Positions 30,630-41,220 of a stretch of 64,000 nt of DNA are shown here, in pieces. The first letter of the stretch is position 1. Every line of letters begins with the position of its first letter. The notes under the pieces are model-generated. The model had not been told where the DNA came from, searched no databases, and saw only the letters and a program-made list of their open reading frames with translations. The position numbers and the translations under genes were made by a program. Where the stretch lies: assembly GCF_011745625.1 (NCBI RefSeq), contig NW_027191477.1:186001-250000 (forward strand), in the 5' to 3' direction. The DNA comes from Cladosporium halotolerans (lineage: Eukaryota).

Positions 30630-33600
30630 ATGCAGCACGCTGGTCCCAGCGAAGAACCTACCAGCAACCCACCTGAACAACGCAGCTTCAAGACAAAAGC
30701 ATCTCGCTACTTCATTCGTACTCCCTCCTTTGCATCGTTCAGGTCGTCTCCGGCTGCTATCGAGACGAATAGCTGCCGTAGCGGGCAAGACACAAACACA
30801 AGCGTCAGCCGGCTCAAAAGGGTACAACGCAGCGTTTCTGCATTCGCCTCTAGATTGCCCCTGATCAACCGTACGCTCTGCCCTCTCCTGGCAACTTCCC
30901 TCCACCCACTGACCAGTGTGCAGGATATCGTTCCAGATCTCGAATGGAGTCTTCTGGCCCTGCTCCGGGGAAACGCTCGATCAGCCACCAACTCCCATCT
31001 ACCTTTAGACCAAGATGGCCGAGCACCGGTGGCCTTGACCATGTGCCAGCCAGCTCATACACGTTCGGCGAAGGCTCAAACGAGTACTTGCCTCCACGAC
31101 CAGTAATCGCACCACCACCCGCTTCCCTCCCACCGCAGCGAAAGCGGTCTGTCCGCTTCGCAGATCCAAGCCCTAGTCCCTTCGACGGATCTCAGAGCTA
31201 TCAAGACTTCGGCTCTAGTGACAGTGGAGAACTCCGCAGGAGCAGACTCGGACACCGTCTTTCGGAATGCTTTGAAGCTCTGAATGGCAAATTGAACATG
31301 ACGAACGGGACTGATACGGTTTTGCATCGGCAAAATGTGCGCGCAAGGCCCGCTGTTCCGTATATCGACACGGCTATGATCACAACGGGCAGACCGACAA
31401 GACCTCCGAGCACTGCTCCGTCTAGAGCAGCATCTGCGCAGTCCACTAGTGCTTCTCCTGTCAGCACTGCGTCGACTGCAGCAACCTCCTTCGGCTCATC
31501 TCCACGCTCGTTCTCCTCACCAAAACGCCTCGAAGCAGACGAGGGTCAACTCGTCGCCCGACTACTTTCACCTGGCGATGACGTGCTGCTTCCTCCCATC
31601 GAAGAGGACACCAGTCGATTCCTCCTCATCCCACAGCAAGACAGCGTCATCACAGCGAAACCATCAATCGCCACCGTCGAAGCCGCAGCAGCAGCGAAGA
31701 CCTTTCTCGAAACCCAATACAACAACTTGCTACACGAGCCAAGCTCTCCTCGCTCGATGCGTCGCAAACGCCTCGAACAGGATCTGTTTGACCTCAAGGT
31801 GGCTCATGAAGAGCGCGTCAGAGCTCGGTGCCAGTGGTTGCGTACGGAGAACGATCATCTGCGCCAGACGCGTGCGCTGAAGTCTAGCTCGATTGCTCGT
31901 CATGGCGTCAAAGGCATTTCTATCGCTGGCTACGACGTCGTCCGCGTGCTTGGTAAAGGCAGTTTCGGTGTGGTCAGGCTGGTGACTGAGCGGAGTCGGG
32001 CTCATGCAGAGCAGAAGGAGACTTCCAGCGTTGGCAACATCGATCGCAATGATTGCACGGTCAACAGGGCTCTGCCATGTGGGAAGCCATTATCCGACGT
32101 CTTCGCCATGAAAGTCATCCGCAAGTCTGAAATGCTGCGCGGCTGTCAGGAAGGTCACTTGCGAGCGGAGCGTGACTTCCTTGTCAATGCTGAGGGCTCC
32201 CGATGGGTTGTACCCCTAATTGCGAGCTTCCAGGACAATACCAACCTCTACCTCGTGATGGAGTACATGATCGGCGGCGACTTCCTGGGCCTACTGCTGC
32301 GAGAAGATGTGCTGGACGAGGCTGTCGCCAGGTAGTACGTGGCGGAAATGATCCTCTGCGTCGAAGAAGTGCACAAGATGAACTGGATCCATCGAGACAT
32401 CAAGCCGGACAACTTCCTGATCAGCGCTTCGGGGCATCTCAAAATATCCGATTTCGGACTGGCGTTCGACGGGCACTGGTCACACAGCCAGAAATACTAC
32501 ACCACCCAACGCAGCTACCTCATGGACAAGCTCGACATCAAAATCGCCGGAGACAGCCAGGACCTCGCCGAAGAGTCCAGCGCCGCCGACTTCGACGACG
32601 ACATCGCCACAACCCCCAGGCACAGCAAACGCGACCCCGAATCGCACGCCCGCCGCGAAGGCCTCCTCAACTACCGCAACCGCACCGAACGGCGCAAACT
32701 CGCCCGCAGCGTCGTCGGCACAAGCCAATACATGGCGCCCGAAGTGATCCTCGGCCACCCCTACGACGGCCGCTGCGACTGGTGGAGCATCGGCATCATC
32801 CTCTACGAGTGCCTCTACGGCCGCACGCCCTTCTTCAGCGAAAACCGGCAGCTGACCAAAGAGTCCATCGTCGCGCACCGCTCCACCCTCTCCTTCCCCC
32901 GCCACGACCGCTACTCCCGCCCCTCCAGCGACTCCCGCCTCTGGCTCCCGCCCCCCTCCAAGAGCGCCCTAGACCTCATGCGCGCCATCCTCGTCGACAA
33001 AGACGCCCGCCTCTCCTCGCGCCAGTACCGGCAGGCGCAGGGGCCGGGGCTCGCGCGCCGCGCCTCGAACCTGCGCCACGTGCACGCCAACGGCGCGGAC
33101 GAGATCAAGGCGCACGCCTTCTTCCGCGGCGTGCCGTGGGCGGGCCTGCACGCGCGCGCGCCGCCGTTCGTCCCGCGCGTGCGCGAGCGCCAGAGCATCG
33201 CCAAGTACTTCGAGGACGAGGCGGATATTGTCAGCGAGGAGTCGTCGCGGTATGAGAGCTGCGAGGGGGAGGGTGGGGTGGCTGGCGCGGAGAGCGAGAA
33301 GGCGGCGGTCGGCTTGCAGGGGCTGTCGGATGCGGAGTTCCGGAGGGTCCGGGAGCACTATGGCGCGGCTTATGGGAGGTGGAGGGTGGAGAGGGTTGCG
33401 TTTTTGCAGCAGCAGCGGCAGCAGGGTGAGGAGGAGACGGCGGGCTGTGGGGTGAGGAGAGAGCGCAAGAGGCCGCGGGACAAGGTGCTCCGGGACGTGG
33501 TGGTGGGCAAGAAGGTGATGGAGATGCGGAAGAGGAGGGCGTTTTTCGGTTACACGTATCGAAGGCCGAGGCCGGTTGTGTTGGAAGGCGGCGGGAGGAG

Positions 33601-33646
33601 GGGGAGGGTGACTGTTGCGGTTGTTGGGGAGGGTGGGGAGGGGTGA
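30630..33646 (+). CDS. AGC/NDR (Cbk1-related, PUK1/STK-21-like) Ser/Thr kinase; intron 30871-30923; single in-frame TAG at 32333-32335
   Basis: LGKGSFG, AMKVIRK, HLRAERDFL, EYMIGGDFL, then AVAR*YVAEM, HRDIKPDN, DFG, a long activation-loop insert, SVVGTSQYMAPE, CDWWSIG and C-terminal hydrophobic motif FFGYTYRR. Both halves are in the same frame. Confidence 0.88.
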
Positions 33647-36370
33647 AGGTTGAGTAGGATGATGGTTGAACGTAATTATCCGTTTTCGGCTCGGCTTTGG
33701 TTTTGGTGTTGATATGGCGTTATTGACTTATTCGGTGTTCGGTGTTCATACCCTGAGGAGTCGAGGTTCGTTCGAGGTGGGATTGTATAGAACCTAGGGT
33801 AGCGACAATTGTACAGATGACTCTATTCTCCAGAGTGTCAAGGGGTCGTATGCCTACACCGTATCCATCAAATAAGCTCGCAACAAACATAAAACTCGCC
33901 ATACCCTCGTCTGACGAGTAGATTACCGTTCGTTCGCTCCGTGAAGACATTGCATACCCGCGAAACCCCCTACCTAGACGCGTAGGCCTTTTACGGGACG
34001 ATGGAAGTTTTATGCAAACGATAGATACGGGCTCGTAGTTCTACTCAGAGCACTACGATCAGGATCGTTTGAGAAGCAGTGTCCGGACAATCGGTGCTGA
34101 AAGAGCAGAGATGGATGAGAACGGAAGGCCGTTTGGCTGCTCCTCTCTGGTCGGTGATGGACGTACTAGAGACAAAGTTCCGTTCTTTTACAAGCGGATG
34201 CAACAGAGTCGACGAATTTTGCGCGATCGCGTATGGGTTCGTGGTTTGACGGCCGTCATGTTCGGTGAGTGAGCGTTCAGAGATGGTGTGTGAAGAGCGT
34301 GGGATTGCGCTGTGCTGTCCTCAAGGGTCTATCGTGTCCCAGATTCTGTGCTGTCGGCCTTTTCACGCAAACCATTGGAGCGTACTGACGACTTCGATGG
34401 ATCGATTGACGAGCGCATCCGCGGCTCCCCTTCGGCCATATGTAAACATTGAGAGCGCCATCGAAAGTAGGACTCCAGAATCGCACGTCGCTTCCGTTCT
34501 CTGGTGTAACGTTGTTCACCACATTTGACTTTCGTGTCACTTCCATACGTACGATGACGCCTTGCCTGATTTTCGCGGAACGACGATGAGCGGCAGCTTG
34601 AGACAGCGATGGAACAGATGAGATGTCGAGAGTGGAGTACCTGTGCGAGGCGATGTAGACGAGAGGTGCATGCCAAGCCTTGCGCCGATCCGCTCCGCTG
34701 GGTTTATGCAAAGGAGATCTGCCCTAGACCTGAAGTAATGCAGAGCGCGGTCGCTGTCCGCCGTCATCTTGTTGCTCCCATCGTGTGTCTCAACGTCGAA
34801 AAGTGGAGCTTGAACGTGAAGGCTAGGAGGCGTCCATCGAAGGGCGCAGCAGTGTTGTGGATGCGAAGCTGGGCTGGTTGGCTCACGATGGCTCTGTTGG
34901 AGCAGTGTATTTTCTTCTTGCTGCTCTTTCCTCCATAGGGCAGGCACCGTGACGATTGATTTTGAGTCCCAGGCCCAGTCTTCCAGGGCCCGAGTTTGGA
35001 TCATGTATTTGTCCGTCAGTTTGTCCTCTGGACAGATCCAGGGATTCAGCGCGGAGACGGCCTGCGATCCATCTCTGCTTTGAATTGGTACCTGGCTGTG
35101 AGGCACGTGGAAGATGCAGCCACCGCAACTGTCTTTCGAGCACTGTTCGCCAGTGGCGTACGTACGCGCAATCTCAGCCTTAAGGATATTACTGATCAAT
35201 GACATCCTTGTGCAGATTGCCGCGGAGCATCGATAGAAGAATTAGTCGAATGCCATGGATTGTGGCGTCCAGGCTATTGTAGAGCGCCAGTATGCTTCCA
35301 TGCGCGATGACATGGTGGAAGATTCGGCGTCGCGGCCTGTAAAGCCAAAAGTGTATCTACAGGGCACGTATGCAGTCCGGGAGGTCGAGAATGGTTCTAT
35401 ACAGACTACAGACCCTGTTGCACAGGCATCGTGCTCGGAACTTCAACACCCACTCGGAACGGAGTCAAAGATGATCAATTGGACGACGCGTAAGAGATGC
35501 GGACGGGAAGGATGACGACGATGTTTTCCCCAGCGCCCTGGCCCGGCGGGCGAAGCTCAATCCGGAGCCGCAGAAGTTTAGGGCTCGCAACGGGCGCGGC
35601 TCTTGCTGCCTTCCGCCGGGCTCCGGGGGCTTCCTGACTTTCACTAACCTCGCGTTTCTGGGGGTTGAGCCACTGCACAACTGGCCCGCCGTTTTCATGT
35701 TGTCTTCGGGTGCACTGCGCCCGAGCGTGCTGACGGCCGCAGCGAGTGCCATCGGCAAAGCGATGCGATGCGATGCGATGCGAGGCACCGAATTCGCTGC
35801 ACGCATCACGCAGACGGCCAGCTCTCCTGGGCGTAAGCAGTGGTGAGACGGTACGACGATGGAGCGCGCATCTCTCGTGACGAGCGGAGATATCTGCAGC
35901 TGACCGTCCGTGGGGCGGGTGTCAGGCTCCAACCTTCCCGCCGGCCGCGCTTGGGTCGCCTGTCTCGGACGCTGAGACCCTCTGCTCCGAGTGCATAACA
36001 GCGGCTGCTGGAGCGATACACTTCCCATTCCTCGGGACTGCCAATCCCGTCGCTCTCCCAGCACGCCAGATCGTAGCGCAATCTGCACTTGGCGCAGCAG
36101 TCCAGAACATAGGTCCGTCTTCCACTAGCTGGCGCTGTCAAACGCTATCCGGTACATGGCGCTGGCGTCATAGGTGATTGTCTGCACTGCTTACCACAAC
36201 GGCCAAGAAGCTTTGTCAAAGCTGTGAGCTCCCGTTTGGGTGAGTTTGGAGCGCCCGTTGTGTGTGTGTTCATATACCTGCGTCGCAGGGCCCTCCTCTT
36301 CATACGTCTCTCCTCACCTCTATCTCCTCTGTTGCCCACCCTATCACCACACAAGACTCTCCGTGACGCC

Positions 36371-39300
36371 ATGTCGTCCACGGGCGGTATCATCCGCACC
36401 GCATCTGGTCGCCAGACCTATCTTCCAGATGGTCTGGACGAAAACGCACAGTTCTCTGGCAACGGCGACACCGTCTCAAGAACGACCAGCGATACCTTGA
36501 ACAACAATGCCTCTAACAGTGTCGCGCCGGCACCGGAGTCGGGCTACATCACCAGCGAAGGCAAGGAGGCCGCTGAAGACCCCATTGAGACGTCGAAAGT
36601 CGCAGACGACTCTTCCTCTGATGAGTTCATCGAGCCCATCAACGCTGCTGATGCTGGCACCCTCACCAAGATCGCAACTCAGCTTTCCAGGAACCAGTCC
36701 TTCTACGCACGCCGTGGTAGCTCGGTGGCAAACGATGGTCTCCAGCGTACCAATACTCTTGAGGGCATTCAGATGGGCTCCCCCGAACTCGATCCCAGCA
36801 GCCCGAAGTTCGATCTGTACAAATGGATCCGATTTACCATGCGCGCCATTGATGAGGAAGACATCAAGATCGCCCGCGCTGGTGTCACAATGAAGAATGT
36901 CACAGTGCGTGGCACTGGCTCAGCATTGAGCCTGCAGAACAACGTCGGCAGCACGCTGATGGCGCCACTGAGGGTCGGCGAGTTCTTCAACTTTGGCTCG
37001 AAGCCTACCAAGACCATTCTTCACGATTTCGACATTTTGATGAAGAGTGGCGAGATGCTCATCGTCCTGGGAAGACCAGGCTCTGGCTGCAGCACTCTAC
37101 TTAAAACTATGACTGGCGAGATGCACGGTCTTCAAGTCGACGAGCAGTCGACGGTTCACTACAACGGCATCCTTCAGCAACAGATGATGCGCGAGTTCAA
37201 GGGTGAGGTTGTTTACAACCAGGAGGTTGACAAACACTTCCCGTAAGTCTAGCATCTCTTGATTGACTCTCTGAGCTTTACTGATCTCCGCTAGGCACTT
37301 GACTGTTGGAGAGACTCTCGAGCACGCTGCGGCACTGCGTGCGCCGAGCCATCGTATCGAAGGCGTCTCGCGCCAGGAGTTTGTCAAGCACGTCACCCAG
37401 ATTGTCATGGCTGTGTATGGTCTCAGTCACACGTACAACACCAAGGTCGGCGACGACTTCGTCCGTGGCGTGTCAGGTGGCGAGCGCAAGCGTGTCAGTA
37501 TCGCCGAGATGGCACTCTCTGGCTCGCCATTTGCAGCCTGGGACAACTCCACTCGAGGTCTCGATTCCGCTACTGCTCTGACATTCACGAAGTCTCTTCG
37601 TCAGACTGCAAACCTGGTGGGCTCCTCCCACGCTGTTGCCATCTACCAGGCCAGTCAAGCTATCTACGATCTCTTTGACAAAGCTGTGGTCCTTTACGAG
37701 GGCAGACAGATCTTCTTTGGTCCTACCAAGCGCGCTAAGCAGTACTTTGAAGAAATGGGCTGGTATTGCCCACCCCGTCAGACTACTGGCGACTTCCTGA
37801 CTAGTGTCACCAACCCATCGGAACGCCAGGCAAGAGAAGGCTACGACAAGCAGGTGCCCCGAACACCGGACGAGTTCGAGGCATACTGGAGGCGCAGTCC
37901 GGATTACGCACAACTTCACAAAGAGATCCAAGCGCACGAGGAAGAATACCCAGTCGGTGACGCTGGCAAGCTCGAAGAGTTCCGCGCATCGAAGAAGGAT
38001 GCTCAGGCACAGCACACCAGACGCAAGTCGCCCTACGTCGTCTCAGTTCCGATGCAGATCAAGCTCAACATGAAACGAGCGGTGCAGCGTATCTGGAACG
38101 ATAAGGCGTCTACTTTCACCCCAATCATCGGCAACATCATCATGGCTTTGATCGTCGGCAGTGTCTTCTACGGTACACCGAACGCGACTGCGGGCTTCTT
38201 CGCTAAGGGATCTGTTCTGTTCTTCGCGGTCTTGCTCAACGCCCTCAGTGCCATCTCCGAAATCAACTCTCTCTATGCACAGCGGCCGATTGTGGAAAAG
38301 CACAAATCATATGCATTCTATCATCCTTCAACTGAGGTGTGTATCAGCTCACAATATTTGATTGGGTCCCTCATATCGCTAACAGCTTCCCCAGGCCATC
38401 GCCGGTATAGTCGTCGACATCCCGCTGAAATTCGCTCAAGCCGTCTGTTTCAATCTGATCATCTATTTCATGGCTGGACTTCGCCGAGAGCCTTCTCAGT
38501 TCTTCATCTTCTTCCTGATCGCGTACGTGGCAACCTTCGTCATGGCGGCCATTTTCCGCACCATGGCAGCCGTCACCAAGACCGTTTCTCAAGCAATGGC
38601 GCTCTCTGGTGTGATGGTACTCGCAATCGTCATCTATACTGGATTCGTCGTGCCTGTGAGCTACATGGGCGCATGGTTCTCCTGGATAAGATGGCTCAAT
38701 CCGCTCTTCTACGCCTTCGAAATCATGATCGCGAACGAGTTCCACGGCCGACAGTTCACCTGCTCGCAATTCGTCCCGGCCTACCCTTCTCTCACTGGCG
38801 ACTCGTTCATCTGCTCCTCGCGAGGCGCAGTTGCCGGCCAGCGTACCGTGTCTGGCGATGCGTTCATTGCGGAGCAGTACAGCTACTACTACTCGCACGT
38901 CTGGCGCAACTTTGGCATCCTGCTCGCTTTCCTCTTCGCTTTCCTGGCTCTCTACTTCATCGCTGTCGAGCTGAACTCCTCGACTAGCTCCACGGCTGAG
39001 GTGCTCGTCTTCCGCCGTGGCCACGCTCCCGCATACCTGACGAACGCGGACAAGCAATCCGACGCCGAGTCAGGCACGGCAGAGAAATCAGCCCAGTCTA
39101 CCGAAAAGGAAGGCGAGGACGTCAACGTCATCCCGCCGCAGACCGACATCTTCACCTGGCGCGACGTCACCTACGACATCGAGATCAAAGGCAACCCTCG
39201 CAGGCTGCTGGACAACGTCTCCGGCTGGGTCAAGCCCGGCACCCTCACCGCGCTCATGGGAACCAGCGGTGCCGGCAAAACGACCCTCCTCGACGTCCTC

Positions 39301-41220
39301 GCCCAGCGCACCTCTATGGGCGTTATCACCGGCGACATGCTCGTCAACGGCAAGCCGCTCGACTCCAGCTTCCAGCGCAAGACGGGCTACGTCCAACAGC
39401 AGGATCTCCACATGGCCACCGCTACCGTCCGCGAATCGCTTCGCTTTTCTGCTATGCTTCGCCAGCCGAAGAGCGTGAGCAAGAAGGAGAAGTACGACTA
39501 CGTCGAGGATGTGATCAAAATGCTCAACATGGAAGACTTCGCCGAGGCCGTTGTTGGTGTTCCCGGTGAGGGTCTGAACGTTGAGCAGCGCAAGCTTCTG
39601 ACGATTGGAGTGTAAGTGATCACCTTTTGATCTCGTCTTGGAAAAATAGAAATACTGACTTTTTCAGTGAACTCGCTGCCAAGCCGAAGTTGCTTTTGTT
39701 CTTGGACGAACCCACCAGTGGTCTGGACTCCCAGAGTTCGTGGGCTATCTGTGCATTCCTCCGCAAGCTTGCGGATAACGGCCAGGCTGTTCTCTGCACT
39801 ATTCACCAGCCTTCAGCTATTTTGTTTCAACAGTTTGATAGGCTTTTGTTCTTGCGCAAGGTGAGCAATCTTCACGTATACTGCTCTCAGCGCCTTGATG
39901 CTGACCAAAATTTAGGGCGGTCAAACTGTGTACTTCGGCGACATCGGACAAAACTCACGCACTCTCCTTGACTACTTCGCGAACAACGGCGCTAGACGCT
40001 GCGGTGACGACGAAAATCCCGCTGAGTACATGCTCGAGGTTGCTGGCGACAAGAACCACGACTGGTTTGAGACCTGGAAGGCCAGCGAGGAAGCTCGCGA
40101 GGTCCAACATGGCATTGATGAGATCGCTCGCGAGAAGTCTAACGTCAACGATAAGGACGATGACGAGAGCGCGCACTCCGAATTCGCCATGCCATTCCCT
40201 CAGCAGCTGGTCGAGGTCACCTACCGCACCTTCCAACAATACTGGCGCATGCCATCTTACATCCTCGCCAAATTCGGACTCAGCATCGCGGCTGGTATCT
40301 TCATCGGTTTCTCCTTCTACGACGCAGACACGAGTCAGCAGGGCATGCAGAACGTTCTCTTCTCCATCTTCATGGTCACCACCATCTTCACCACCTTAGT
40401 CAACCAGATCATGCCTCTCTTCGTCGACCAACGTTCCCTCTACGAAGTCCGCGAAAGGCCCAGCAAAGCCTACAGCTGGAAGGCCTTCTTCATCGCCAAC
40501 GTCATCGTCGAAATCCCCTACCAAATCGTCGCCGGCATCCTCACCTTCGCCTGCTTCTACTACCCCGTCGTCGGCGTCCAGAGCTCCGAGCGCCAGGCTC
40601 TCGTCCTCCTCTTTTGCATAGTCTTCTTCATCTACGCCTCCACCTTCGGCCACCTCTGCATCGCCGCCATGCCCGACGCCCAGACCGCCTCTGCAATCCT
40701 TACCCTCCTCTTCTCCATGACCCTCATCTTCTGCGGTGTCATGCAGACCCCCGACGCCCTCCCGGGCTTCTGGATCTTCATGTACCGCGTCTCGCCCCTC
40801 ACCTACTGGGTCGGCGGCATCGCAGCCGCCATGCTCTCCGGGCGCGAAGTCGTCTGCGCCGACGCAGAGGTCTCCGTCTTCGACCCGCCCGCCGGCCAGA
40901 CCTGCGAGGCCTACATGGCGCCGTACCTCGCGCAGGCGCCGGGGACGCTGCAGAACCCGTCCGCCACCGCCGACTGCCGCTACTGCGGGCTCAGCGTCGC
41001 GGACCAGTATCTCGGCGGCTCGAACATTTTCTGGGCGGACCGTTGGCGGAATTTCGGGCTCATCTGGGCCTACGTTGCGTTTAACATTGCGCTCGCGACG
41101 TTCTTGTATTATTTCTTTAGGGTGAGGAAGTCGAGTGCGAAGGGCAAGAGCGATAAGTTGCAGAAGTTGGGGTTTGGGCTTAAGTGGATTGTGAACAAGT
41201 TTTGGAAGAAGCAGCACTAA
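36371..41220 (+). CDS. Full-size PDR/ABCG multidrug transporter; introns 37243-37294, 38337-38394, 39612-39667, 39861-39915
   Basis: NBD1 Walker [23 protein letters not shown] and [12 protein letters not shown]2 [15 protein letters not shown] and [11 protein letters not shown]. Two TMDs ending in WRNFG. All introns keep frame. Confidence 0.95.

Follow-up and report, generated by a model that had tools for sequence, protein, structure and literature searches.

The 64,000 nucleotides of Cladosporium halotolerans analysed here (RefSeq assembly GCF_011745625.1, contig NW_027191477.1, positions 186,001 to 250,000; hereafter the window) carry on the forward strand the gene of an NDR-type AGC kinase whose reading frame is intact except for one in-frame TAG standing in place of a conserved tryptophan (Trp) codon. 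Comparison with related genes identifies it as an ortholog of the perithecium kinase gene PUK1 of Fusarium graminearum and of stk-21 of Neurospora crassa, and what is new, as indicated by the same comparisons, is a conserved premature UAG at a second Trp codon of this ortholog in Dothideomycetes. It is proposed with moderate confidence that this codon represents a second, independently placed UAG of PUK1/STK-21 orthologs which would depend on adenosine-to-inosine (A-to-I) editing of the mRNA and which would be ancient in Capnodiales-like Dothideomycetes.

In a scan of open reading frames (ORFs), the plus-strand frame 30854-33646 was found to be interrupted once, by TAG 32333-32335, which separates in frame the ORF 30854..32335 from the ORF 32336..33646. 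The coding sequence (CDS; 30944..33646, + strand), delimited by the ORFs, the Pkinase domain (PF00069) and the alignment of its start, is a single exon of 900 codons running from ATG 30944, which aligns with the N-terminus of the Cladosporium fusiforme protein P0003, to the terminal TGA (33644-46, +); no joints indicative of introns were seen in the contigs of relatives bridging the gene. The TAG is codon 464 and stands within GCC AGG TAG TAC GTG GCG GAA ATG (A R stop Y V A E M; + strand). It occupies the position of a conserved Trp (ARWYVAEM) at the beginning of helix E, A32334 being the candidate edited base. Neither another stop nor a frameshift occurs across the 900 codons. On the 3' side of the TAG, the HRD catalytic-loop codons (32390..32398, +) follow intact after 19 codons, and the translation continues with the DFG motif (32450..32458, +; codons 503-505), separated by 92 residues from APE (32735-32743; codons 598-600), then with the TGG TGG of CDWWS (32780..32785, +), which is the published position of the edited stops of PUK1/stk-21 and is sense at both codons here, and finally with the C-terminal NDR-type hydrophobic motif FFGYTYR (33542..33562, +). 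The original prediction, which had described an otherwise intact kinase frame with AVAR-stop-YVAEM as its only break, a stop lying upstream of the catalytic loop and normal TGG TGG codons in CDWWS at 32780-85, is thus borne out on each of these points.

The protein obtained by reading through the TAG contains the Pkinase domain (E 9.9e-49) with its GKGSFG, AMKV, HRDIKPDN, DFG and APE motifs, and the closest solved structures are those of Cbk1 (4lqp, E 4.3e-66) and NDR1/STK38 (6bxi, E 7.6e-64), MRCK and ROCK ranking below. A long DFG-APE insert and a C-terminal F-x-G-Y-T-Y-R motif are what we take to be the hallmarks of NDR kinases, and both are shared by the window gene and the NDR/LATS kinases (yeast Cbk1, N. 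crassa COT1, human NDR1/STK38). The subfamily of the window differs from these in that it is fast-evolving, with about 45-50% identity between classes, specific to filamentous ascomycetes and endowed with a long N-terminal region. Among the matches listed, the nearest homolog is that of C. fusiforme (79%), followed by rock-inhabiting and plant-associated Dothideomycetes, in agreement with the suggestion that the stop lies outside Sordariomycetes. The best Sordariomycete match is P0105 (Verticillium), and a search starting from P0105 returned the family across Sordariomycetes and Leotiomycetes.

In this reverse search, 103 models among the 120 listed did not fit a DWW pattern, a figure that overcounts the models skipping the site, as two of the failing Leotiomycete models (Botryotinia and Pseudogymnoascus) do hold DWW. 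In a sample of 21 sequences, the models of Fusarium, Claviceps, Trichoderma, Xylaria and the Sordariales (Cercophora, Podospora) omit YDGRCDWW or its first W, and Pyricularia retains WW at that site. This pattern agrees with passages of Liu et al. 2016 (PMC4817773), in which the codon pair of PUK1 orthologs reads UAG UAG (F. graminearum), UAG UGG (N. crassa) or UGG UAG (F. verticillioides) and has G's in Magnaporthe, and in which annotators are said to have introduced false introns. In addition, the first W would be expected at CDS nucleotides ~1717-1720 in the Fusarium models and 1501-1519 in those of Sordariales, which is compatible with the genomic positions reported (1830/1836 and 1628) if two introns lie upstream. 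Because of this skip pattern and of the fit with the published coordinates, the gene is treated as the PUK1/STK-21 ortholog, an assignment indicated by comparison within 120 listed matches from which the named genes themselves (FGRRES_01058 and NCU03242) are absent. The subfamily that had been suspected at the outset is therefore sustained by the structure matches, the reverse Sordariomycete search and the position fit, and PUK1's own edited stops are indeed, as originally stated, the tandem Trp codons, which read TGG TGG here. As a separate observation, two kinase models, P0130 from Stachybotrys and P0132 from Verticillium longisporum, carry a fused FKBP-type prolyl isomerase (PF00254), probably because neighbouring genes were merged; a scan of 18 ORFs next to the window kinase revealed no FKBP.

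The residue occupying the interrupted codon in related proteins was examined in a first search of 121 sequences. The site column is W in 104 of the 111 homologs matching the motif, the others having F (6) or H (1), which corroborates the view that the position is compatible with Trp. The 10 sequences of the 121 without a motif match consist of two with WYCAEM, seven models that skip the codon and one (P0033) that could not be placed. All seven skipping models (Teratosphaeria nubilosa, Baudoinia, Cryoendolithus, Polychaeton, Zasmidium, Dothistroma and Zymoseptoria) do so by means of an implausible intron, and in Zasmidium, Dothistroma and Zymoseptoria this false intron starts exactly at the codon and removes the HRD loop. 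Sordariomycete orthologs have Phe at this column (87 of 120 in the search from P0105, among the matches listed), and consequently a helix E stop of this type cannot exist in that class. Apart from this, His was noted at the column in Verticillium orthologs (P0105, P0122-P0127) and Trp in Leotiomycetes.

A search for short proteins gave a complementary picture, as 104 of the 120 clusters among the matches listed terminate precisely at the residue preceding this Trp codon ('...LLREDVLDExVA[KR]') and the other 16 go on with W. The clusters ending at the site range from 99% to ~61% identity to the window, one being at 99% and ten at 86-88%, and they originate from NCBI, ENA, JGI and Logan assemblies. 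Eleven of them are named and represent 10 species: Rachicladosporium, Cercospora kikuchii, Salinomyces, Hortaea werneckii (91 members), Meristemomyces (two clusters), Sphaerulina musiva, Oleoguttula, Lecanosticta acicola, Ramularia collo-cygni and, in the Pleosporales, Macroventuria anomochaeta. In a column dominated by W, a recurrence of this extent is far above chance. Since 104 of the 120 short-form clusters end at the same residue, the stop cannot be attributed to an error of assembly or to a single isolate, and the short forms of many species confirm that it is shared.

The DNA of relatives was available as metagenome contigs, in which five orthologous loci span the site, four with a sense codon and one with TAG. 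The codon is TGG in L001, L002 and L005, TTC in L006 and TAG in L004, the latter (53% identity) continuing directly with TAT GTG GCT GAG ATG. All six DNA sequences, that of the window included, are colinear at the site, and therefore no intron explains the truncations. An intron over the TAG was rejected on this ground and also because the conserved R and Y directly flank the codon and leave no room for it, and a phase-2 intron that would mimic an ending in 'K/R + stop' is supported by no DNA, its strict exclusion applying only to the window and L004. A scan of genome contigs added nothing to this comparison, all 80 loci being bacterial kinases with no fungal DNA among them.

The same contigs are informative on the DWW site. 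The L004 copy holds, besides the stop of the window's site, a second in-frame TAG (L004:983-985) at the first Trp of CDWWS (TAG TGG), which is the position of the edited stop of N. crassa stk-21; the lineage of L004 is unplaced, a lichen-forming fungus (56%) being the closest named relative. L002, a Pleosporales-like sequence whose nearest named relatives are Pleosporales at 70-74%, has TAG TGG at DWW (L002:3260-3262) and TGG at the window's site, and the DWW stretch is skipped in four Dothideomycete models (Neocucurbitaria, Paraphaeosphaeria, Lentithecium and Recurvomyces). According to these sequences, the DWW site known from PUK1 also carries a stop in fungi other than Sordariomycetes (L002, L004), and it seems to do so in Pleosporales as well. 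As an independent observation, the first Trp of DWW is Leu (CTC/CTG, 'CDLWS') in L001:2214-2219, in L003:454-459 and in P0003 of C. fusiforme, and this CDLWS clade has TGG at the window's stop site.

A FastTree phylogeny was computed from 216 of 241 sequences, using at most 330 residues on the upstream side of the site, 25 being dropped for want of an anchor motif or for having fewer than 150 residues upstream. On this tree the stop/sense state changes at least 26 times, against 64-77 times in the 10 printed of 200 label shuffles, 26 being a rough figure as the tree is short and moderately supported. The Cladosporiaceae form a clade of 26 rows with a support of 100, of which 22 are stop and 4 sense. 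The C. fusiforme trio, which is sense, is nested inside this mostly stop clade, suggesting that it reverted from stop to sense. A clade of 18 rows from Mycosphaerellaceae (Lecanosticta, Dothistroma, Zasmidium, Ramularia, Zymoseptoria) is uniformly stop; the Pleosporales are mainly sense with several small stop groups, and the Botryosphaeriales, Elsinoe, Neodothiora and the lichens are sense. The distribution argues for an old, inherited stop that has repeatedly switched to and from TGG, and it shows this stop to be real and of ancient date, with a wide occurrence across Cladosporiaceae, Mycosphaerellaceae, Teratosphaeriaceae-like lineages and part of the Pleosporales. That it was placed independently of the stops of PUK1, as had been anticipated, agrees with its location at the helix E Trp, the DWW codons being sense here.

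Downstream of the stop, the gene displays the marks of constraint. Over 165-181 codons 3' of the stop, the proportion of nonsynonymous differences (pN) is 0.08-0.27 versus 0.72-0.93 for synonymous ones (pS), including in the comparison of the window with L004, both of which carry TAG; pN and pS are given in place of their corrected ratio (dN/dS) as synonymous sites are saturated, with pS above 0.75 in 6 of 8 comparisons. Relative to C. fusiforme, the 54 residues directly 3' of the stop (P0001 495-548) are the best-conserved segment of the protein at 94%, compared with 83% for the N-lobe, 72% for the insert and 61% for the tail, and three Mycosphaerellaceae with a deduced stop show 62-67% similarity downstream versus 60-66% upstream. 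Among 150 matches listed, four downstream-half representatives begin at the first Met past the stop (MILC[IV]EE...) and retain HRD, DFG, APE and DWW, and three further ones begin at the next Met. In the alignment of relatives' contigs on the window (40 of 324 difference rows), indels within the CDS are of 3 nucleotides (31110, 33428, 33437) or form a +1/-1 pair 7 nucleotides apart (33069/33076), and five indels 3' of the terminal stop are of 1-2 nucleotides each. Taken together, these data indicate that the reading frame and the catalytic motifs 3' of the stop are under purifying selection; the low pN relative to pS, the segment at 94% and the frame-keeping indels bear out the expectation of a constrained rather than relaxed downstream part. 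In the same region, spikes of depth were seen at window 32250-32289 and 32324-32437, with a contig of 48 nucleotides at depth 444 (run X6) and a depth of 161 (X13); lying over the most conserved kinase motifs, they probably come from kinases of other organisms and not from the window gene.

The mechanism proposed for these observations is a conditional kinase controlled by stage-specific correction of its message. With a genomic UAG in place of the conserved Trp codon that opens helix E, the unedited mRNA would give a 463-residue product devoid of C-lobe and catalytically dead, and would probably be a target of nonsense-mediated decay; the kinase would then be off in vegetative growth, since the unedited message could provide only this dead product. 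During sexual development or at another specific stage, an ADAT-type deaminase (Tad2-Tad3-like) would turn A32334, in its U-A-G context and short hairpin loop, into inosine, and UIG would be read as UGG (Trp), giving the full-length kinase of 900 residues. TAG and TGG differ by one A/G difference, as such a correction presumes.

The local context of A32334 is consistent with this mechanism. The candidate base is preceded by T and followed by G, with A at +3, and CGCCA (32326-30) pairs with TGGCG (32340-44), both as originally described; the stem is lengthened by a sixth base pair, T32325-G32345, so that the predicted hairpin (32325..32345, +) has a 6-bp stem UCGCCA/UGGCGG including one G-U pair and a 9-nt loop, GGUAGUACG, which contains the UAG. 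Published preferences, as given in passages of PMC4817773, comprise a U at -1, present in 85.7% of sites, either A or G at +1, a purine at +3 and a location in hairpin loops, which applies to 62% of sites, and the context of A32334 matches all of them, the structural part of the match being weak.

Several points weigh against editing at this codon and in this class of fungi. The fold of 61 nucleotides around the site has a z-score of -0.9 versus shuffled sequences and the hairpin is therefore not statistically unusual; loops closed by at least 6 bp cover 6.6% of gene positions and those closed by at least 5 bp 21.5%, and local folding is also present in TGG-bearing orthologs. The hairpin by itself is weak evidence for editing. 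Furthermore, the stop-bearing species beyond the window and L004 are known from protein models, in which TAG, TGA and TAA read alike, and A-to-I correction is proposed from DNA and protein sequences. From the literature, passages of a 2024 review (PMC11156358) have A-to-I mRNA editing documented in Sordariomycetes and Pyronema only and absent in Aspergillus nidulans and Botrytis cinerea, its distribution in other classes still to be determined, and a passage of a 2020 review (PMC7306014) makes the same point on distribution for pseudothecia. In the passages concerned, Feng et al. (PMC11087585) argue for an origin within Sordariomycetes of the Ame1-Tad3 interaction required for editing, and Qi et al. 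(PMC10776026) place the beginning of the editing system in the Sordariomycete ancestor and infer that all the premature-stop-correction (PSC) stops of F. graminearum arose within Sordariomycetes. No Dothideomycete editing and no helix E stop were found in main text passages of the literature on A-to-I editing, pseudothecia and PUK1/stk-21, a result limited by Fig. 4 of Qi et al., which might mark DWW-site stops outside Sordariomycetes.

The main rival to editing is programmed translational readthrough, in which the UAG would be kept in the mRNA and a near-cognate tRNA would insert Tyr, Gln, Lys or Trp, yielding little full-length kinase. A conserved stop followed by a conserved frame is equally expected under readthrough, which moreover requires no editing in Dothideomycetes, where none is documented. 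In fungi, programmed readthrough is known to produce peroxisomal isoforms of glycolytic enzymes by C-terminal extension in UGA-CUA-like contexts. The window gene resembles these cases by its in-frame stop with conserved coding sequence after it and differs from them in that the stop is internal, on a Trp codon and in the form UAG-U. Indeed, U follows the stop in both DNA examples (window and L004), and UAG-U is, to our knowledge, no leaky stop context. Both stop sites of the family, the helix E codon and the DWW site of L002, L004 and Sordariomycetes, coincide with Trp codons, and at the helix E column the other allele is mostly TGG (W 104, F 6, H 1 of 111), an A/G switch. According to passages of PMC4817773, the DWW stops of the same family are at least 90% corrected by editing in F. 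graminearum. Readthrough is ranked below editing because both stops lie on Trp codons alternating mostly with TGG and the DWW stops are corrected by editing, and it is considered unlikely. A tRNA scan found none in the window, a result that says nothing on suppressor tRNAs elsewhere in the genome.

Ranked lower is a functional N-terminal product made of the regulatory region and N-lobe, the downstream part being separately expressed or otherwise retained. The upstream half is indeed well kept (N-lobe at 83% versus C. fusiforme), and ab initio callers give a downstream ORF from the first Met past the stop. On the other hand, HRD, DFG, APE and the hydrophobic motif are kept as in intact kinases, and the stop and TGG alleles swap among close relatives, from which it follows that the two alleles are functionally near-equivalent. 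We know of no precedent for a kinase split between N-lobe and helix E, and this explanation is regarded as quite improbable. Lowest of all comes an ordinary pseudogene, a nonsense mutation confined to one isolate or an error of assembly. In its favour, the gene shows a single G-to-A-type substitution, in a Trp codon, and asexual forms predominate in what is known of many Cladosporium-like fungi, but this explanation is made highly improbable by the same truncation in 104 of 120 short-form clusters from several databases, by the lack of a second stop or frameshift in 900 codons, by the frame-preserving indels of relatives and by a pN well under pS past the stop.

Known systems offer several points of comparison for the window gene. 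Like PUK1 and stk-21, it belongs to the same family and has UAG for a conserved Trp of the kinase domain, and in both instances automated gene models either pass over the stop by means of a false intron or end early, and TAG and TGG alternate in relatives (for PUK1/stk-21, passages of PMC4817773). The differences are that the window stop is at the helix E Trp, 148 codons upstream of DWW, with DWW being TGG TGG, and that it belongs to a Dothideomycete and its editing is proposed here from sequence, whereas that of PUK1/stk-21 is published. The 71 PSC pseudogenes of F. graminearum (AMD1, FgAMA1, FgRID and CHE1 among them) are described in passages of PMC10776026 as likewise intact but for an in-frame TAG, mostly derived from TGG, and as having repeatedly gained and lost their stops at equivalent sites, as the window stop did; those stops are all inferred to be of Sordariomycete origin and younger than the editing system of that class, whereas the window stop spans Capnodiales-like orders and some Pleosporales.

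A wider proposition, given about an even chance, is that premature UAGs are subject to stage-specific A-to-I editing in Dothideomycetes as well as in at least one other lineage outside Sordariomycetes (that of L004), this editing having either predated the Ame1-dependent system or arisen independently, and that PUK1/STK-21 is a recurrent target of it, at two Trp codons in different classes. A stop persisting at one Trp codon ahead of a constrained kinase domain is hard to explain without a recoding mechanism, and its recurrence in Dothideomycetes bears on current models that put the origin of editing in Sordariomycetes. If correction is stage-specific, the kinase would constitute a sexual-stage switch in the class that holds many major crop pathogens. 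The comparison also exposes a systematic annotation error, many public models of this kinase being truncated or provided with false introns.

The window-wide scan that returned the kinase yielded 12 other ORF pairs split by one stop (13 with the kinase), which were rejected as spurious by their flanking residues alone. On the 3' side of the kinase, the window contains a gene for an ABC transporter of PDR/CDR type (36113-41217, +), with the domains ABC_trans_N, ABC_tran, ABC2_membrane and PDR_CDR, which extends across several ORFs, presumably because of introns.

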